A DNA stretch of 32,000 nucleotides from Thermofilum pendens Hrk 5 (GTDB lineage: Archaea; Thermoproteota; Thermoprotei; Thermofilales; Thermofilaceae). The stretch covers positions 1,320,001-1,352,000 of the forward strand of contig NC_008698.1 of assembly GCF_000015225.1 (NCBI RefSeq), written 5' to 3'. Position numbers and translations under genes: made by a program. Below are positions 1-5,850 of the stretch, piece after piece (position 1 is the first letter of the stretch; each line of letters starts with the position of its first letter). The notes beneath the pieces were generated by a model. That model was not told the DNA's origin. It saw only the letters and a list, made by a program, of their open reading frames with translations, and ran no database searches.

Positions 1-549
1 TACGAGGAAGGGGTTGGCGGACGACGTGAGCCTATCGATGGCGTTCCTGTGCTCGGCGGCAAGCCCCACGTCGGTCGGGGTAGCCCCCGCGACGGCGGCT
101 TCTTCTCCATCGTCGACGAGCACGGCGTCACCCCCCTTGAGGACGACGACCTTCAGCCTCTTCGAGAGCTCTCCTACGAGCTCCGCGCAGGGAGCCACGC
201 CGCACCCAGCGGTGTCTAGGGCCTCTGCCAGCCTCCTCGCGCCGCCCAGGGTGGCGTACAGCCTAACCTTCCTGCCGAGCCCCGCGGACTTCGACAGCGA
301 GGCGTGCACCACGCCCTGGGGTGCGAGAGGCACCAGCGGCACGAGCCTGCCCCCGTCGTGGAGAGCCGGAAGAATAGCGGAGGCCGCAACCCGCCCCTCC
401 AGCACTGCGCGTAGCAAGCCGGTATCCCCCGTCATAGACGCTACGCTCGCGAGGGCACGGAGCACGGCTGCGGCTGGGACTACGCGCTCCGGCCTGCGGT
501 ACCCGACCCTGAACCCCTTCTCAAAGTCCACCCTGAACGCTTCGAGCAT
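1..549 (-). CDS. csm4: Type III CRISPR effector subunit, Csm4/Cas5-family RAMP; N-terminal 183 codons only, gene continues past the left edge
   Basis: My own translation of the minus strand from ATG at 549 gives MLEAFRVDFEKGFRVGYRRPERVVPAAAVLRALASV...GLAAEHRNAIDRLTSSANPFLV. It is open in frame to position 1. The N-terminal pattern and the RNAIDRxT motif are typical of Csm4/Cmr3-type RAMPs. It starts 6 nt after the csm3 stop. It is absent from the ORF track because no stop lies in the window. The + strand ORF 14..625 is its antisense shadow. Confidence 0.6.
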   Translation of the reverse strand, partial: MLEAFRVDFEKGFRVGYRRPERVVPAAAVLRALASVASMTGDTGLLRAVLEGRVAASAILPALHDGGRLVPLVPLAPQGVVHASLSKSAGLGRKVRLYATLGGARRLAEALDTAGCGVAPCAELVGELSKRLKVVVLKGGDAVLVDDGEEAAVAGATPTDVGLAAEHRNAIDRLTSSANPFLV

Positions 550-554
550 GAAGT

Positions 555-1559
555 CTACCCGAAGAGCGTCTTCTCCACTTCTCCTGCTATCTCGTCCACC
601 TTGCCCAGCAGAGCTTCGACGCTAGCTAGGTCCGCTAGCTTCCTGTACTCGGGCTTCTCCGCGCCGAAGGTCTTCATTACCTCCACCGAGATGTCCTTGA
701 ACTTCACCCTGCCGTACCCCCTGCTACCGGAGGCGCCCAGGTACGTCTCCTCCACCAGCCTGAGCCCCTTGGCGACTAGCTCGAGGTTCCTCTTCACGTA
801 CCCCTTGTCGATGTCGAAAACGAGTAGCCTCAACGCTCCCTGGAACACCACCCCCGGCTTGACGCGGGCAACCTGCCTCGGGTCAGCCGCGGAGGTTATC
901 CTGTCGATCCTGTTCTCGCCTTTCTCTTCGAGGAAGTCCGAGATCGCCAGGATCCTCCTGCCGTTCTCGCTGAGCACGCCAACGTAGTCCTTGTCCGGGG
1001 TCATGTCGTCGACCAGCAGCCTCGTTAGCGCAAGGTTCAGCGCCAGGCTTCGGGCAACCTTCCCCGCCTCTTCGTAGTCGGCGTCATCGGGTTCCTCTTT
1101 GCCCTGCTTCGAAGCTAAGTCTCTGGCAAGCATTTCGACGAGCTGGTCGAAGCCCACGGCGGGAGATCCAAATACTTCGTCTACTTCGCACCTACCGCTT
1201 ATGTCCCGAATTAGCTCGTCTGTGGACATCGGATGAGCACGGGTACCCCAGAGGATTCTCGCATGGAGCCATATCCTCTCGTCCGAGGTGTAAAGGCGCT
1301 TGCCGAGCGAGAGCTCCAAGAGCCCGCGCATCCTCCCCTTCAGGCTGGAGCCGGGGACCAGCGGAACCTCCACTTCGACTTCCGCGCCGCCGAGGCTGTA
1401 CTTGCGCTTGGTCACGATCGGGTAGAGGTCTGCGCCCCCGATCCTGTATACCTGGGCGTGGACGGGCATCCTGATCAGGAGGCCCGTGACTGTCTCCATC
1501 TTCAAGCCTAGCCTGACTATGCCCCGTAGCTCCCTTTGAAGCGCGGACATGGCTATCAC
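555..1559 (-). CDS. csm3: Type III CRISPR backbone subunit Csm3 (Cas7-family RAMP)
   Basis: The motif set matches Csm3/Cmr4: PGSSLKGRMRGLLE glycine-rich loop, IGGADLYP (candidate catalytic Asp), ENRIDRITSAADPRQVARVKPG, and C-terminal GASGSRGYGRVKF. A GAGGTGA Shine-Dalgarno box lies 5 nt before ATG 1550, so the true start is probably 1550 rather than GTG 1559. Confidence 0.8.
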   Translation of the reverse strand: MIAMSALQRELRGIVRLGLKMETVTGLLIRMPVHAQVYRIGGADLYPIVTKRKYSLGGAEVEVEVPLVPGSSLKGRMRGLLELSLGKRLYTSDERIWLHARILWGTRAHPMSTDELIRDISGRCEVDEVFGSPAVGFDQLVEMLARDLASKQGKEEPDDADYEEAGKVARSLALNLALTRLLVDDMTPDKDYVGVLSENGRRILAISDFLEEKGENRIDRITSAADPRQVARVKPGVVFQGALRLLVFDIDKGYVKRNLELVAKGLRLVEETYLGASGSRGYGRVKFKDISVEVMKTFGAEKPEYRKLADLASVEALLGKVDEIAGEVEKTLFG

Positions 1560-1975
1560 CTCTCGTATTTGTAGACTAGCACGGCGAGAGCATCGAGGAT
1601 CGCGCGCCCGCGCTCTGCGACTTCGATGAGATCTCCTCTGTTGTTAAGCCTGCTAGCCACGCTGTCTAGGACTCTCATTACGACCTGGTATATCCCGTCG
1701 CTTATCTGCTTCCTGGCCCACTGGTAACTTACGATGGTCTTCGCGCGTGCCAGCTCGAGCGAGGCCCTAGCTGTACTTGGAGTGCTTCTCGTTAGGTAGT
1801 CGAGAACAGTGCCCACCACCTCGTGGATCCTCCTATAGGCAGTGGTGGTAGTTTTACCGACGAGTTCCTGCGAGGCGAGAATGGCGTCAACCGCTTCGAG
1901 AACCTTTCCGGCGTTCAGGGCGTCGGTTATCAGTTTATCGAGGTTGCGCGGGAGGTGCGAATACTTCTTCGACAC
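1556..1975 (-). CDS. csm2: Putative type III small subunit (Csm2/Cas11-like)
   Basis: 139-aa ORF that looks helical, directly upstream of csm3 and overlapping it by 4 nt. Its size, position, and the KTTTTAYRRIHE and SYQWARKQ segments resemble Csm2 small-subunit segments. The GTG start lies 27 nt downstream of a TTTATAC box, which fits a leaderless transcript. The family call is by eye only. Confidence 0.5.
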   Translation of the reverse strand: MSKKYSHLPRNLDKLITDALNAGKVLEAVDAILASQELVGKTTTTAYRRIHEVVGTVLDYLTRSTPSTARASLELARAKTIVSYQWARKQISDGIYQVVMRVLDSVASRLNNRGDLIEVAERGRAILDALAVLVYKYER

Positions 1976-2001
1976 GAAATATTTTTCATTAACATGTATA
2001 A
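1976..2001. promoter_or_regulatory. Compact AT-rich divergent promoter region shared by csm2 (minus) and the ATPase cassette (plus)
   Basis: Sequence aaatatttttcattaacatgtataaatg. On the minus strand, TTTATAC sits about 27 nt before the csm2 GTG. On the plus strand, AT boxes sit 17-25 nt before ATG 2002 and ATG 2020. Confidence 0.45.
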
Positions 2002-2988
2002 ATGCCTTTCCGGGTTTCGATGAAAAGGGGCATAAAGGTCAAGCTCTCGGGCGAGCGGCTACGCGGCGTCGAGCTTGTACTGGAGGCGGGCTCCGTGAGG
2101 GCCTTCACGGGTTTTAACGCGACGTTGAAGTCCGCGTCGGCGAGGGCGATCCTCCTGGCGCTCCTAGACCTCCAGCTCGTCACTCCGCTGAGCGAGGAAT
2201 TGCTCGGGGACAGGCTTGAAGGCGCGAGGGGGCTTGTGGCGGCTGAGGTCGAGGGCGTCGAGGGAGGGGTGCTGGGCTACGTCGTGGAGGATTACAGGCT
2301 GGTTTTAAGGGCGTACCTCCAGAGTGTGAAGGACAAGCTCGAGGAGCTGAGGGGAGAGGTTCGCAGGCTCGAACCCCCGACGGGCGGGATTGCGAGCGAG
2401 GCTTACAGGCTTATTAGAGAGGTGGAGTGGTTGCTGTCGGGCTCGCGGGACGTCTTGAAGCTCAAGGAGAGCGTGGACACGAAGCTGTTAAGCAGAGCTG
2501 AGAGGCTCGTGGAGGAGGTGCTCGGGAGGGTCGCCGAGAGGGCCGGCGTGAGGGTCGAGGACGTAGCCCCGCTCCACCTCACGGTGACGGGGGAGGGCTT
2601 CATAGTGCGCGACGAGCGCCTAGGCTCCGAGGTTCAGGTAGAGAGCGTCTCGTCCGCTGTGTCCTCCGCGCTGCTCTGGGAGCTTACGAAGCTCTTCTTC
2701 TCGGTGCCCGCGGCGGCGAGGTTTCTCGTAGTGGAGGAACCCGAGGAGGCTATGAGCCCCCTCCAGCAGGTGGCGTACGCGAGGGCCCTCGAGAGGCTCG
2801 CGAAGGAGATGCCGGGCGATAACTACGCGGTCGTCACTACCCACTCGCCGTACGTCGCCGTAGCCCTCTCCGCGGCGCCGGTGTACTTCAGGTGGGACTG
2901 GGACTCGAAGATGTACGTGGCCGAGGAGTCCACGTTGCCACCCTCCTTCACGCTCGCAGAGCTCCTCTTGCTGAAGGGTGGTGGCTAG
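2002..2988 (+). CDS. ABC/SMC/RecF-like (AAA_15/21-type) ATPase with degenerate Walker A
   Basis: The N-terminus VRAFTGFNATLKSASARAILLAL occupies the P-loop position, but reads GFNATLKS instead of GxxxxGK[ST] (Leu replaces the Gly before Lys). The C-terminus has an intact Walker B/D-loop (FLVVEEPEEAMSPLQQ) and H-loop (VVTTHSPYV). The start could instead be ATG 2020. Confidence 0.65.
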   Translation: MPFRVSMKRGIKVKLSGERLRGVELVLEAGSVRAFTGFNATLKSASARAILLALLDLQLVTPLSEELLGDRLEGARGLVAAEVEGVEGGVLGYVVEDYRLVLRAYLQSVKDKLEELRGEVRRLEPPTGGIASEAYRLIREVEWLLSGSRDVLKLKESVDTKLLSRAERLVEEVLGRVAERAGVRVEDVAPLHLTVTGEGFIVRDERLGSEVQVESVSSAVSSALLWELTKLFFSVPAAARFLVVEEPEEAMSPLQQVAYARALERLAKEMPGDNYAVVTTHSPYVAVALSAAPVYFRWDWDSKMYVAEESTLPPSFTLAELLLLKGGG

Positions 2989-3454
2989 GAGGGCCGTAGT
3001 AGACCTCCTCGCCTTCTTCGGGTGCAGGCACCCCTCTCCGGGGTGTTCGTTTAACGCCGAGCTCCTCGATTACCTCGTGAGGATCGGGGTGACCGTGCAC
3101 TTCGTCTCGAGGGTCCAGGTCGAGAAGTACAACTGGGGGTCGTGCGCCGGGGAAAAAGCCAGGCTTCTCGCCTGGTTGCGGAAGGGAAAGGAGCTGGGGC
3201 ACGGTGCGCGCGAGGAGAGGGTTGCCGGGGAGGTCGTGAGGGGAGGTGTGCACAGGGACGAGTACCTGGACCTCTGCGCGGGCGTAGCGAAGGCGTTCCA
3301 GGAATGCTCCGCGGATCTGGCGCTGCTCTGCTCCGGGAAGACGATGGACGTGGACGAGCTCCTCCTAAAGTTGAGGCGCGTAGCCGAGGTGGAGCTCGAG
3401 GCGCTCAGCTTCCCGGACGTCTACCTCCTGAGGAAGGTGGATCGGCGACGCTGA
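2978..3454 (+). CDS. Hypothetical protein (orphan B), translationally coupled to the ATPase
   Basis: The GTG start overlaps the ATPase stop by 11 nt. GC3-rich codon usage is consistent with coding. I recognise no family. The N-terminus (AVVDLLAFFG...AELLDYLVRIGVTVHFVS) looks like beta-alpha-beta by eye. Confidence 0.45.
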   Translation: MVARRAVVDLLAFFGCRHPSPGCSFNAELLDYLVRIGVTVHFVSRVQVEKYNWGSCAGEKARLLAWLRKGKELGHGAREERVAGEVVRGGVHRDEYLDLCAGVAKAFQECSADLALLCSGKTMDVDELLLKLRRVAEVELEALSFPDVYLLRKVDRRR

Positions 3455-3897
3455 GGCTATCGCTTATAGTCGAGCCTCCCGGCCGCGCTGAGCTCGCGTG
3501 CACGCTTAGAGCGCTCCTCCGCAGGGGTGGCGCCGCCGAGCTCTGGCTGTCCTGCGCCGACGCCGACGCCCTAGCCGAGTCGATGCTACGGTTGCACGAC
3601 GCCGGCTACTCCGTGCTGCGGGTGGGGTTGCTCGACGGATCCCTGTTACCGCCGACAGCCGTGCTCGACGAGCCCAGGCTAGCCGAGGCCGACCCCGCCG
3701 TCGGGGGGCGCCTGCTGGTAGAGTGCAGCGCGGCTCAGTGCTGGGAGCTGGCCTTAGCGCTCGCCGCGAGGTGCAGGAGAGTAGCGTGGAGTGCGCGCAG
3801 GCCAGACACCCTTGCCGTGGTTGCGGAGAACCTCAGGGTCTCCGAGCTGTTCGAGAGGGGGGCCAGGCTCCTCAAACCGTTCAGGTCTCCCCCATAG
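3451..3897 (+). CDS. Hypothetical protein (orphan C); start unresolved, possibly joined to orphan B by a frameshift
   Basis: Protein-like translation (LRLSLIVEPPGRAELACTLRALLRRGGAAELWLSC...) begins exactly where orphan B stops, in the -1 frame. There is no ATG/GTG/TTG in frame between 3304 and ATG 3583. The 3142..3450 part of the track ORF is an RG-rich alternate frame of orphan B. Confidence 0.4.
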   Translation: MRLSLIVEPPGRAELACTLRALLRRGGAAELWLSCADADALAESMLRLHDAGYSVLRVGLLDGSLLPPTAVLDEPRLAEADPAVGGRLLVECSAAQCWELALALAARCRRVAWSARRPDTLAVVAENLRVSELFERGARLLKPFRSPP

Positions 3898-3919: not shown

Positions 3920-3987
3920 CTTTCAACGCTTAAGGCAAGAACTGTTTCGAGGATATGACCCTCTCAATGCTTTCCCACAGCCGCCCC
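3920..3987 (-). repeat. Decayed CRISPR repeat remnants at the trailer end
   Basis: From 3920, ctttcaacgct matches the first 12 nt of the repeat with 1 mismatch and then diverges. From 3961, ctctcaatgctttcccacag matches the repeat with 1 mismatch and a 2-nt insertion. The 3961 copy lies 67 nt before the first intact repeat, which is one normal unit length. Confidence 0.6.
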
Positions 3988-4027: not shown

Positions 4028-4529
4028 CTTTTAATGCTTTCACAGTTGCTTCTAAAAAATCACGTTGGAAGAGGTGCGGACGTATGAGCTTTTTGTTTAC
4101 GTTCGGCTTTTAATGCTTTCACAGTTGCTTCGTGACCTCGGCGCCGAAGCCCGGCCTCAGCAACTTGAACCTTTCAATGCTTTCACAGTTGCTTCGGCCT
4201 ACGCCGTGACACAGCTGGTGTTCTACGTGGCAGACCTTTCAATGCTTTCACAGTTGCTTCGAGGGTAAGGTTGTCTAAGAGCGGGACCCACGGCGAGGAA
4301 TACTACCTTTCAATGCTTTCACAGTTGCTTCCCAAGTTCTCTTTCAATTGTTTTCCCGTTGAATCGGATCTTTCAATGCTTTCACAGTTGCTTCCGATCC
4401 TAGCTGGCTTGGTGAGCGGTGAGCCCACGATACTGATCTTTCAATGCTTTCACAGTTGCTTCAACTTCTTGGAGCGCGGCAGGAAGCTGGAGTCCTTCGT
4501 GCGGCTTTCAATGCTTTCACAGTTGCTTC
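4028..4529 (-). CRISPR. CRISPR array, 8 intact 25-nt repeats and 7 spacers
   Basis: The plus-strand repeat is CTTTCAATGCTTTCACAGTTGCTTC, at 4028, 4107, 4171, 4236, 4307, 4370, 4438 and 4505. The first two carry C5->T. Spacers are 54, 39, 40, 46, 38, 43 and 42 nt. The reverse complement, GAAGCAACTGTGAAAGCATTGAAAG, ends in the ATTGAAAG 8-nt crRNA handle. Decayed repeats lie on the left and an AT-rich leader on the right, so transcription is on the minus strand. Confidence 0.95.
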
Positions 4530-4774
4530 CGACCATTTTTCACGGCAGAGGATCTATAAATTCTTTTCTCAGTGAGTCGAAGCCTGCAAAACTGCCTCTT
4601 TGACAAAGTTTACCCAAGAGAGACTTCGAAAACTGTTTCGGGAAATTCCCGGCAGAAAACGGGATTTCATAGGAAGTATTTTCAAAAGAGGTTCTTCTCG
4701 TCGAGTGGGATTCGTAAACAGAAAATCGAAATCCCGACCTCTGCCGGGAATTTGCGGCGGAAGGTTTTTGCGCT
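4530..4774 (-). promoter_or_regulatory. CRISPR leader with TATA/BRE promoter
   Basis: The flank next to the best-conserved repeat is AT-richer. Plus-strand TATAAA at 4555-4560 reads TTTATA on the minus strand. It is preceded on that strand by purine-rich GAGAAAAGAA and lies 25 nt upstream of the first repeat (4529). Confidence 0.6.
4643..4753. repeat. Inverted repeat pair inside the CRISPR leader (26-nt arms, 59-nt spacer)
   Basis: The left arm is aaattcccggcagaaaacgggatttc (4643-4668). The right arm is gaaatcccgacctctgccgggaattt (4728-4753). The arms are complementary at 23 of 26 positions, with a 3-nt central mismatch. The left arm also contains the local palindrome cgggaa-a-ttcccg. Confidence 0.8.
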
Positions 4775-5320
4775 GTGCCGGGTTTTTCGCTTTGGGTGGT
4801 CTCAGTGTTGCATATAGGTGTGGCGGCTCACAGCTCTGGCTCTGACGCTGAGAGGGCTTGGAGGTTTGTCTCGGCTTTGCCGGGCGGTGTTAGGGTGTTG
4901 CTTGGGGGTTACTGGGGTGTTATGAGGGACGTGGCTGAAGCCGCTAGGAGGAGGGGTTTGACCGTGGTGTTCTTCCTGCCGGTCGACCCTCCGGCGGAGG
5001 TCCCGGACGACGAGCTCTTCGTCCGCGTGGATACGGGGCTCGACTTGAGGGGGAGGAGCGTGGCGCTCGTGAGGAGCTCTGACGCGCTGGCGGTGCTTGG
5101 GGGCGAGGTTGGCACGGTGGTGGAGGCTTTCCTCGCCTACTCCTACGGGAAGCCCGTCGCGGTGCTGAGGGGGACTGGGCTCTCGTCGGACGCGCTGGAG
5201 CGCGCCTTCCCGCGGGGCTTCGACGGCAGGGGGAGCGCCCCGGTTGTCTACGTGGATACCCCGGAGGAGCTAGCCGCTAGGGTCGTGGAGCTAGCCGCGT
5301 CGAGGCGGGGGCGCAGGTAG
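4775..5320 (+). CDS. LOG/SLOG-superfamily Rossmann protein (TIGR00725-like)
   Basis: GGYWGVMRDVAEAARRRG and LGGEVGTVVEAF (the GGxGTxxE motif) are LOG-family hallmarks. The length fits the short archaeal TIGR00725 type. The likely real start is GTG 4805 (MLHIGVAAHSSGS). Confidence 0.7.
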   Translation: MPGFSLWVVSVLHIGVAAHSSGSDAERAWRFVSALPGGVRVLLGGYWGVMRDVAEAARRRGLTVVFFLPVDPPAEVPDDELFVRVDTGLDLRGRSVALVRSSDALAVLGGEVGTVVEAFLAYSYGKPVAVLRGTGLSSDALERAFPRGFDGRGSAPVVYVDTPEELAARVVELAASRRGRR

Positions 5321-5328
5321 CGCTCGCG

Positions 5329-5850
5329 CTACTCCCGGCGGCTCCTGGCCTTCCTCAGGGCTTCCCCCGCGAAGTCTAGTAGCCACTTCACCACGGGCCT
5401 CGCCGCCGCGACGTCTTCCACCCTGTACTTGGCCTCGTGGAAGCCCCACACGTGTATCTCGTAGGCCTTGGACCACGCCAGGTGTACCCTCTCGTCCCCG
5501 AGGATCCTGGAGAGGTCTGTGGCCGCCATGCCGAGTAGCCATGTGTCCCACCTGCCTCTCTCCCTGACTTTCTCCAGCGTTGGGGCGTTGAAGCCCTCTG
5601 CCAGCGCCTTGATGCACTCCTCGGCAACTTTGTACAGCTTCTCGCTCGCCTGGACTGGGTCGCCTTTGCCCAGGTACTCGTCGGCCTCCTCCATGAACTT
5701 CGCCGCGAGCTCGAGCCTAGCCTCGGCGACAACCTCAGGGTCCAAGTCGAGCGCTTTCGACAACGCGTCTACCACGAGGCTCTCGACGCTCAACCCCCTC
5801 TTCTCGACCTCCTCTACGAGCCTCCTCGGGATAACCACTGTCTTCTCCAT
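5329..5850 (-). CDS. PaREP1-family protein (archaeal helical family)
   Basis: EARLELAAKFMEEADEYLGKGDPVQASEKLYKVAEECIKALAE...RGRWDTWLL...AWSKAYEIHVWGFHEAK matches my memory of the PaREP1 consensus. Confidence 0.65.
   Translation of the reverse strand: MEKTVVIPRRLVEEVEKRGLSVESLVVDALSKALDLDPEVVAEARLELAAKFMEEADEYLGKGDPVQASEKLYKVAEECIKALAEGFNAPTLEKVRERGRWDTWLLGMAATDLSRILGDERVHLAWSKAYEIHVWGFHEAKYRVEDVAAARPVVKWLLDFAGEALRKARSRRE

Follow-up and report, generated by a model that had tools for sequence, protein, structure and literature searches.

A probable Cas_RecF/RFas-type accessory module between a type III-A (Csm) operon and its CRISPR array in Thermofilum pendens

In the 32,000-nucleotide (nt) stretch of the Thermofilum pendens Hrk 5 genome analyzed here (NC_008698.1, positions 1,320,001 to 1,352,000; hereafter the window, in whose own numbering positions are given), three open reading frames (ORFs), A, B, and C, lie between a type III effector operon and its clustered regularly interspaced short palindromic repeat (CRISPR) array, and the question is what these genes are and whether they belong to the CRISPR system that they border. 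An earlier note on this DNA, made from the letters alone, had described them as an orphan and possibly undescribed cassette built around a P-loop-degenerate ATPase. Our best explanation, to which we give a probability of roughly 0.75, is that A, B, and C represent in T. pendens an accessory module that is conserved in one crenarchaeal lineage of type III-A (Csm) systems and that published surveys list as Cas_RecF, an SMC/RecF-like ATP-binding cassette (ABC) ATPase of ~330 amino acids (aa), together with its RFas small partners of ~160 aa each.

We searched a profile built from A and its two first matches against 1.84 billion cluster representatives, which returned 38 at E ≤ 1e-10, mostly 320 to 390 aa long with several shorter fragments, and below these a drop to generic AAA_15/21 proteins of 400 to 500 aa. 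With ~38 relatives at the cluster level, the ATPase is not the orphan it had been taken for. A word-indexed homologue search, a method weak for these families, gave two matches with A; a scan of GTDB genomes gave only generic bacterial AAA_21 Walker B matches; and the annotation of 30 A-family clusters is uninformative (hypothetical protein, predicted ATPase, OLD family). A metagenome scan yielded 19 loci whose A proteins are 25 to 37% identical to that of T. pendens. B and C have relatives as well: against family profiles built without the window sequence, the window's B and C score E values of 1.9e-16 and 3.6e-15, respectively, so that the three ORFs are real genes and not chance open frames.

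Wherever at least 1 kb of upstream sequence is available (19 of 19 loci), A is divergent from csm2-csm3(-csm4-csm5-cas10), an operon whose products PADLOC names Csm2, Csm3, Csm4, Csm5, and Cas10. B lies directly 3′ of A in every locus having sequence downstream of A and is tightly coupled to it. A CRISPR array is found 0.5 to 3 kb downstream of the cassette in 12 loci, and in a 13th (L001, which carries the 97% relative of the window genes) the first repeats stand at the contig end. The earlier note had proposed a type III accessory module and had foreseen that a lack of enrichment of homologues near CRISPR-cas loci would speak against it; because the association with the csm operon is complete, that objection fails decisively, and the constant succession of A and B and the usual presence of an array downstream likewise bear the proposal out. 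Pairwise identities correlate between A and Csm3 (ρ = 0.48) and between A and B (ρ = 0.69), with A (~30%) and B (~24%) diverging faster than Csm3 (~50% pairwise identity). A, B, and C travel and diverge along with csm2-csm3-csm4-csm5-cas10, and no relatives of the module were found in plasmid, phage, or viral-contig collections. None of the three proteins matches a CARF or SAVED domain in Pfam, NCBIfam, or PADLOC, as had been noted from the sequence, and no CARF gene lies within the window; elsewhere, CARF proteins adjoin the module in L032, where the gene order is A-B-C-Csx1, and in L033 and L043. The repeats of three further loci (L036 to L038) are presumably of Sulfolobus type.

The A frame is open from an ATG at 2002, which the earlier note took as its start, to a TAG at 2986 to 2988. 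ATG 2020 is most likely the true start, since it is the first codon of A in the 97% relative, in a 30% relative, and in the NCBI annotation; an exact database look-up with A from ATG 2002 found no match because the databases use the 2020 start. The remaining frame assignments of the note, an 11-nt overlap between A and B and a C frame at −1 relative to B, stand. The motifs it had picked out in A are also present: a P-loop reading GFNATLKS, a Walker B/D-loop (FLVVEEPEEAMSP), and a TTHSP H-loop. The P-loop does not fit the canonical Walker A pattern GxxxxGK[ST], and the loss of the Gly before the Lys is real. Across 39 family members, Walker A reads G-[LFYM]-N-[AS]-T-[LFM]-K-S: the residue preceding the Lys is Leu, Phe, or Met in most sequences and Gly in two, and the Lys-Ser pair is kept in 38. 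Walker B is [IV]-E-E-P-E-E in all 39, with Glu in place of Asp; P-x-Q-Q and T-T-H-S-P-Y are invariant; and the signature is VS[ST]. Since the variant P-loop (GxN[AS]TxKS) and Walker B (EEPEE) are conserved throughout, they are, as read from this alignment, a hallmark of the family and not decay. Degeneracy was thus the wrong word, and an inactive P-loop arising by lineage decay in T. pendens is ruled out by the same family-wide conservation. A retains the Lys-Ser pair, the catalytic Glu (the second Glu of Walker B), the signature Ser, and the H-loop His, and we infer that it still binds nucleotide. The A gene is split or fragmented in three metagenome loci (L044, 10040 to 11056; L047, 1572 to 2653; L050, 8962 to 9445), and the P-loop of the L044 copy reads GMDATLKP; these split genes reflect either pseudogenization in some populations or assembly error.

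Profile libraries place A only in part. Its Pfam matches stay below the whole-domain gathering cutoffs (AAA_21, 21 bits against a cutoff of 27 and covering profile positions 186 to 302 only; AAA_15, 12.6 against 32.1), and its best PADLOC matches, AriA, GajA, and PtuA, are weak and confined to the C-terminal half. An AlphaFold2 model built from a 30-sequence family alignment (predicted local distance difference test score [pLDDT], 84; predicted TM-score, 0.84) takes the form of a bipartite ABC head into which ~80 helical residues are inserted as a short arm. The best Foldseek matches to this model in the PDB are the RecN head, Rad50, SMC heads, and the Septu/retron PtuA, at E values of ~1e-7 and TM-scores of 0.37 to 0.50. 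The predicted structure identifies A as an ATPase head of the SMC/Rad50/RecN/PtuA type.

B runs from GTG 2978 to TGA 3452 to 3454, which gives the 11-nt overlap; NCBI starts it at GTG 2981, and the overlap is then 8 nt. Residues D9, C16, Q47, H92, E95, Y96, and Y149 are nearly invariant in the B-family alignment. Neither B nor C has a match in Pfam, PDB sequences, PADLOC, or PHROGs, and profile searches with B gave no HNH or TOPRIM match; an AlphaFold model of B from three sequences (pLDDT, 41) was unusable. Comparison of B with C by hhalign indicated no relation (probability, 0.1%), nor did comparison of either with Csm2 to Csm5. The Rossmann-like (beta-alpha-beta) N termini that the earlier note saw in B and C, and the nucleotide-binding partner that it suggested, gained no support from these comparisons. 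A perfect AGGAGG stands at 2987 to 2992, 6 nt before a GTG in L001 (7279 to 7281) that corresponds to a GTA in the window (2999 to 3001); L001 thus has a textbook B start, and the window's B start (GTG 2978 or 2981) has only a weak Shine-Dalgarno (SD)-like context. The B proteins of one clade end in an additional Cys-rich tail, CINCINTSCGDSAICCSSP (L034, 7927 to 8496; L036, 10980 to 11549; L037, 6063 to 6635; L038, 10599 to 11168), which suggests an added metal-binding or Fe-S element.

C raises a question of its own, since its frame, open through to 3897, contains no ATG, GTG, or TTG between 3304 and 3583, in keeping with the ~130 nt without a canonical start that the earlier note had observed. 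NCBI annotates only the part from ATG 3583 to 3897 (104 aa), which would be without four of the residues that are invariant in the family. Homology to the C family begins by nt 3493, 90 nt upstream of that ATG, and the alignment runs from the B stop. The family is marked by ExWxxC, LDG, and C-terminal RLLKPxRxPP motifs and has 12 invariant columns (C16, E29, W31, C34, L60, G62, E90, R138, K141, P142, P146, and P147), all of which are kept in the window's C, with no internal stop or insertion or deletion. Codon changes relative to L001 are 6 synonymous to 3 nonsynonymous in the C frame, compared with 2:7 and 1:8 when the other two frames are read; where the C frame continues upstream over B, the ratio is 1:7, and A and B themselves give 11:9 and 10:8. 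On these grounds C still looks functional in T. pendens, and the kept invariant residues and the 6:3 codon changes make it likely that C has an unusual start or is translated by reinitiation after B. The junction offers several near-cognate codons (ACG 3448, CTG 3451, AGG 3454, and ATA 3466); the codon that shares a base with the B stop is AGG (cgcTGAGGcta), and L001 is identical there. An SD-like AAGGTGGATC at 3434 to 3443 precedes the ACG and CTG by 7 to 8 nt. In the scenario that we prefer, and to which we give about even odds, C lost its ATG in the T. pendens lineage, and its translation would now reinitiate 3′ of AAGGTGGATC, at the near-cognate CTG 3451 beside the B stop (in cgCTGAgg).

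The main rival to reinitiation is recent loss of the start; in this reading, C would be a pseudogene decaying in the T. pendens lineage, where just A and B would be functional. The missing start codon, which the 97% relative shares, would fit such decay, as would the 104-aa remnant that NCBI annotates; moreover, in DNA of 69% GC, long open frames arise by chance. Set against the 12 retained invariant residues, the bias in codon changes confined to the C frame, the intact frame, and the SD-like element placed just ahead of ACG and CTG, we regard the pseudogene as unlikely. The earlier note had offered a choice between an unusual start and a single frameshifted gene of ~305 aa, and of these the unusual start is the better option. 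Such a B-C gene could have been broken by a frameshift or be read through by programmed −1 frameshifting. It could account for the absence of a start in C, for C homology that sets in at the B stop and in the −1 frame, and for a junction that is identical in L001. It is scarcely credible, and we rejected it, because all homologous loci have B and C as separate genes with individual starts. In three loci, a single base is common to the B stop and the C ATG (TAATG); in four, the C ATG precedes the B stop by 19 nt. In L040 and L044, C does not adjoin B at all and is located beyond cas10, on the csm side. No slippery heptamer (X-XXY-YYZ) occurs near 3430 to 3454. The word-indexed homologue search, weak for these families, gave no match with the B-C fusion and three with a concatenated B+C profile.

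Is the module new? Cas_RecF and RFas were named in Vestergaard 2014 (PMC3973734), where Table 5 gives RFas as small proteins of ~170 aa, and in Shah 2019 (PMC6546367), where cluster 17 (Cas_RecF) is a 330-aa SMC-type ATPase. Cluster 83 (~160 aa) has no profile matches, invariably adjoins cluster 17, is found beside type III-A systems in Sulfolobales and Thermoproteales, and has the top Cas-association score of all accessory clusters; cluster 84 is similar in size, and Csx1 accompanies the clusters (PMC6546367). The T. pendens genes share this plan: A is an SMC/Rad50/RecF-type ATPase of ~330 aa with a small RFas-like protein alongside and complete type III adjacency, and B (158 aa) and C (~147 aa) are proteins of ~160 aa without profile matches, one of which always adjoins the ATPase. 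Because size, gene order, host orders, III-A subtype, Csx1, and the lack of database matches all fit, we consider it very probable that A-B-C is the published module of Cas_RecF (cluster 17) and cas_RFas (clusters 83 and 84), compared by description and not by alignment; with this match in architecture (PMC3973734, PMC6546367), the earlier label of undescribed probably falls away. T. pendens differs in that its C lacks a canonical start, the window holds no CARF gene, and B and C share no detectable similarity.

Several observations weigh against this reading. The link to the published exemplars (VMUT_1481, VMUT_1493, TTX_1229, and P186_0873/4) rests on architecture and not on alignment, and PADLOC, which carries some models derived from Shah et al. 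(such as C3a181), gave no Cas_RecF or RFas match for any A, B, or C. Nor does hhalign detect similarity between B and C, whereas Shah et al. report, tentatively, that clusters 83 and 84 "appear to show" weak similarity (PMC6546367). We found no functional study of the Cas_RecF/RFas module, and recent type III surveys are silent on Cas_RecF. B and C have no recognizable fold or catalytic domain, so that an effector role for B is an analogy, and closeness to the array says little about mechanism, as array orientation varies between loci. The first three of these points would also favor a module truly distinct from Cas_RecF/RFas and hence undescribed, as would another pair of comparable makeup that Vestergaard 2014 (PMC3973734) lists, a Cas ABC ATPase with an sRRM protein (YN1551_2137/2138). 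That pair resembles ours in joining an ATPase to a protein of ~150 aa near crenarchaeal type III or type I systems, but it is a pair and not a triplet, and its small protein has an RRM domain, of which none was found in B or C; here too the comparison is by description only. We judge a distinct module improbable: the published description fits on every descriptive point.

The relatives of A outside CRISPR suggest another reading, namely, that A-B(-C) is an autonomous ATPase defense of the Septu, PARIS, or Gabija kind that merely shares a defense island with CRISPR. PtuA is both a structural neighbor and a weak PADLOC match of A, and Septu PtuA-PtuB, including the retron-associated PtuAB (8ee4, 8sux, 8eea, and 9n6b), likewise encodes a small partner immediately 3′ of an ABC head that bears a helical arm; however, PtuB is an HNH nuclease, for which B has no match, the PtuA Walker A is canonical, and Septu is autonomous and not tied to cas genes. 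PARIS AriA-AriB and Gabija GajA (OLD/AAA_15/AAA_21) supply the best profile matches of A and share with it a DEPE-type Walker B followed by Pro-x-x-Gln and a TTHSP H-loop, but A has EEPE and not DEPE, no TOPRIM or DUF4435 partner accompanies it, and the matches cover the C-terminal half only, below the Pfam gathering score. With the divergent csm2 adjacency in all 19 loci, the placement of C on the csm side in some, and the absence of copies from the mobile-element collections searched, an autonomous system is very improbable. The RecN, Rad50, and SMC heads (4aby, 5dny, 3qku, and 5h68) have the same bipartite ABC head interrupted by a helical insertion, yet the A arm is only ~80 residues, identity is 9 to 16%, there is no Mre11- or kleisin-type partner, and the context is CRISPR and not repair.

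As for what the Cas_RecF/RFas-like module does, ABC heads dimerize around two ATP molecules, and the defense relatives PtuA and AriA are scaffolds that control a small effector. By analogy, and only tentatively, an A dimer formed on ATP could act as a scaffold or clamp gated by ATP, with B and probably C as its cargo, and together with them support the interference stage of Csm; the arrangement may resemble PtuA-PtuB or AriA-AriB, and the conserved C-terminal tail of C is a candidate docking peptide. Alternative roles would be loading or turnover of the ribonucleoprotein or tethering of DNA at the transcription bubble. Rather doubtful is a more specific proposal, in which A-B-C would be an ATP-gated effector arm physically coupled to Csm, a type III-A output independent of cyclic oligoadenylate (cOA): the SMC-like ATPase, with its remodeled P-loop, would sense or clamp nucleic acid at the target site and release or activate B and C, the RLLKPxRxPP tail of C serving as the docking peptide. 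Shah et al. suggested that the ATPase makes target cleavage more efficient by supplying energy (PMC6546367).

Table 1. Features of the module and its surroundings in the window
Feature	Positions	Strand	Basis
Gene A, Cas_RecF-like SMC/Rad50-type ABC ATPase, 322 aa	2020-2988	+	Profiles, AlphaFold2/Foldseek, relatives
Gene B, small partner (RFas-like), 157-158 aa	2978-3454	+	Leave-out profile, position after A
Gene C, second small partner, ~147 aa	3454-3897	+	Leave-out profile, alignment, codon changes; start noncanonical
csm4, 3′ part; gene runs off window start	1-549	-	jackhmmer with L001 Csm4; PADLOC names L001 and L032 orthologues Csm4
csm3 (Cas7 RAMP)	555-1559	-	NCBIfam TIGR02582 E 1.2e-31, above cutoff; PADLOC Csm3 E 1e-38
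csm2 (Cas11 small subunit), first effector-operon gene	1556-1975	-	PADLOC Csm2 E 4.6e-8; position conserved in 18 loci
Divergent intergenic region	1976-2019	.	Sequence, composition; TATA-like hexamers on both strands
Decayed trailer end of array	3920-3985	-	Repeat remnant 3920-3931, first full-length degenerate repeat 3961-3985
CRISPR array, 8 intact 25-nt repeats	4028-4529	-	Minus-strand repeat GAAGCAACTGTGAAAGCATTGAAAG, ending in ATTGAAAG handle
Putative leader, AT-rich (46-47% GC)	4530-4770	-	Composition, inverted repeat, fold z-score -4.7

On the csm side, the AT-rich spacer that had been described between csm2 and A is as stated, 26 bp at 15% GC (1976 to 2001), and grows to 44 bp at 32% GC if A starts at 2020; from its sequence, this divergent region is a putative promoter. 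We read the wider locus from CM138769.1 (GCA_054696865.1), which is identical to the window over an overlap of 13.5 kb: the full order is a PDDEXK_10/C3a181 protein, cas6, cas10, csm5, csm4, csm3, and csm2, then divergently A, B, and C, and the array. The protein upstream of cas6 (L051, 261 to 989, minus strand) is a PDDEXK_10/DUF3782 protein that matches PADLOC C3a181 at an E value of 9e-98; C3a181 is another type III accessory family in the catalogue of Shah et al. The T. pendens Cas10 (L051, 2719 to 5478; 920 aa), which lies outside the window, lacks an HD dipeptide within residues 1 to 150, the part in which related loci show LLHDIGKP, and its cyclase motif is AGDD and not GGDD. Among the other module-bearing loci checked, Cas10 keeps GGDD in all and the HD motif in all but L002.

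On the array side, a repeat remnant at 3920 lies 23 nt past the C stop, as the earlier note had it, with 11 of the first 12 repeat bases matching; all 10 matches of that repeat-start type within the window fall in the array. The repeat, once reverse complemented, ends in ATTGAAAG, and it is the decayed repeats that lie nearest the cassette, which places the cassette at the trailer end of an array read on the minus strand. Array orientation relative to the cassette differs between loci, which makes a role tied to leader or trailer unlikely, and we rejected a fixed relation of the cassette to either end of the array. The leader role of the AT-rich region at the other end is suggested by its position beside the intact repeats. 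This putative leader holds a 26-nt inverted repeat (4643 to 4668 and 4728 to 4753; 88% complementary, 59 nt apart), whose minus-strand RNA has a predicted fold of −46.6 kcal/mol (z-score, −4.7); Rfam gave no match in the window. One spacer (4332 to 4369) contains a complete 25-nt repeat of a different family, GATTCAACGGGAAAACAATTGAAAG (core 4341 to 4365, minus strand), with the same ATTGAAAG end and no more than 9 and 4 nt on its two sides. The window has a single copy, with none expected by chance, which may be either a recombination scar or a spacer taken up from another array.

Directly beside the leader lies a gene for a SLOG/LOG-like protein (4775 to 5320, plus strand; Pfam LDcluster4, E value of 3e-17; TIGR00725 below cutoff). 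We considered it as a part of the module, but the 21 other loci that carry the module yielded no homologue, and it probably does not belong to the system. A PaREP1-family protein (5329 to 5850, minus strand; Pfam E value of 3e-39) adjoins the CRISPR region, and the genes beyond it carry Pfam domains of metabolic enzymes (FAD-linked oxidase, FGGY kinase, and pyridine-nucleotide oxidoreductases).

About half of the accessory genes that flank type III CRISPR systems have no CARF domains, and their function is unknown (PMC6546367). What we have found is probably the rediscovery of one such catalogued but uncharacterized module, not a new system. New here are its complete association, in 19 of 19 loci, with one type of csm operon; the variant Walker A and Walker B motifs that the A family shares throughout; the motif sets for B and C; and the ability of C to move to the csm side. 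Together, these results offer concrete targets for mutation and pull-down. If the module is an ATP-driven helper or effector of Csm, it would represent a second, non-cOA branch of type III signaling.

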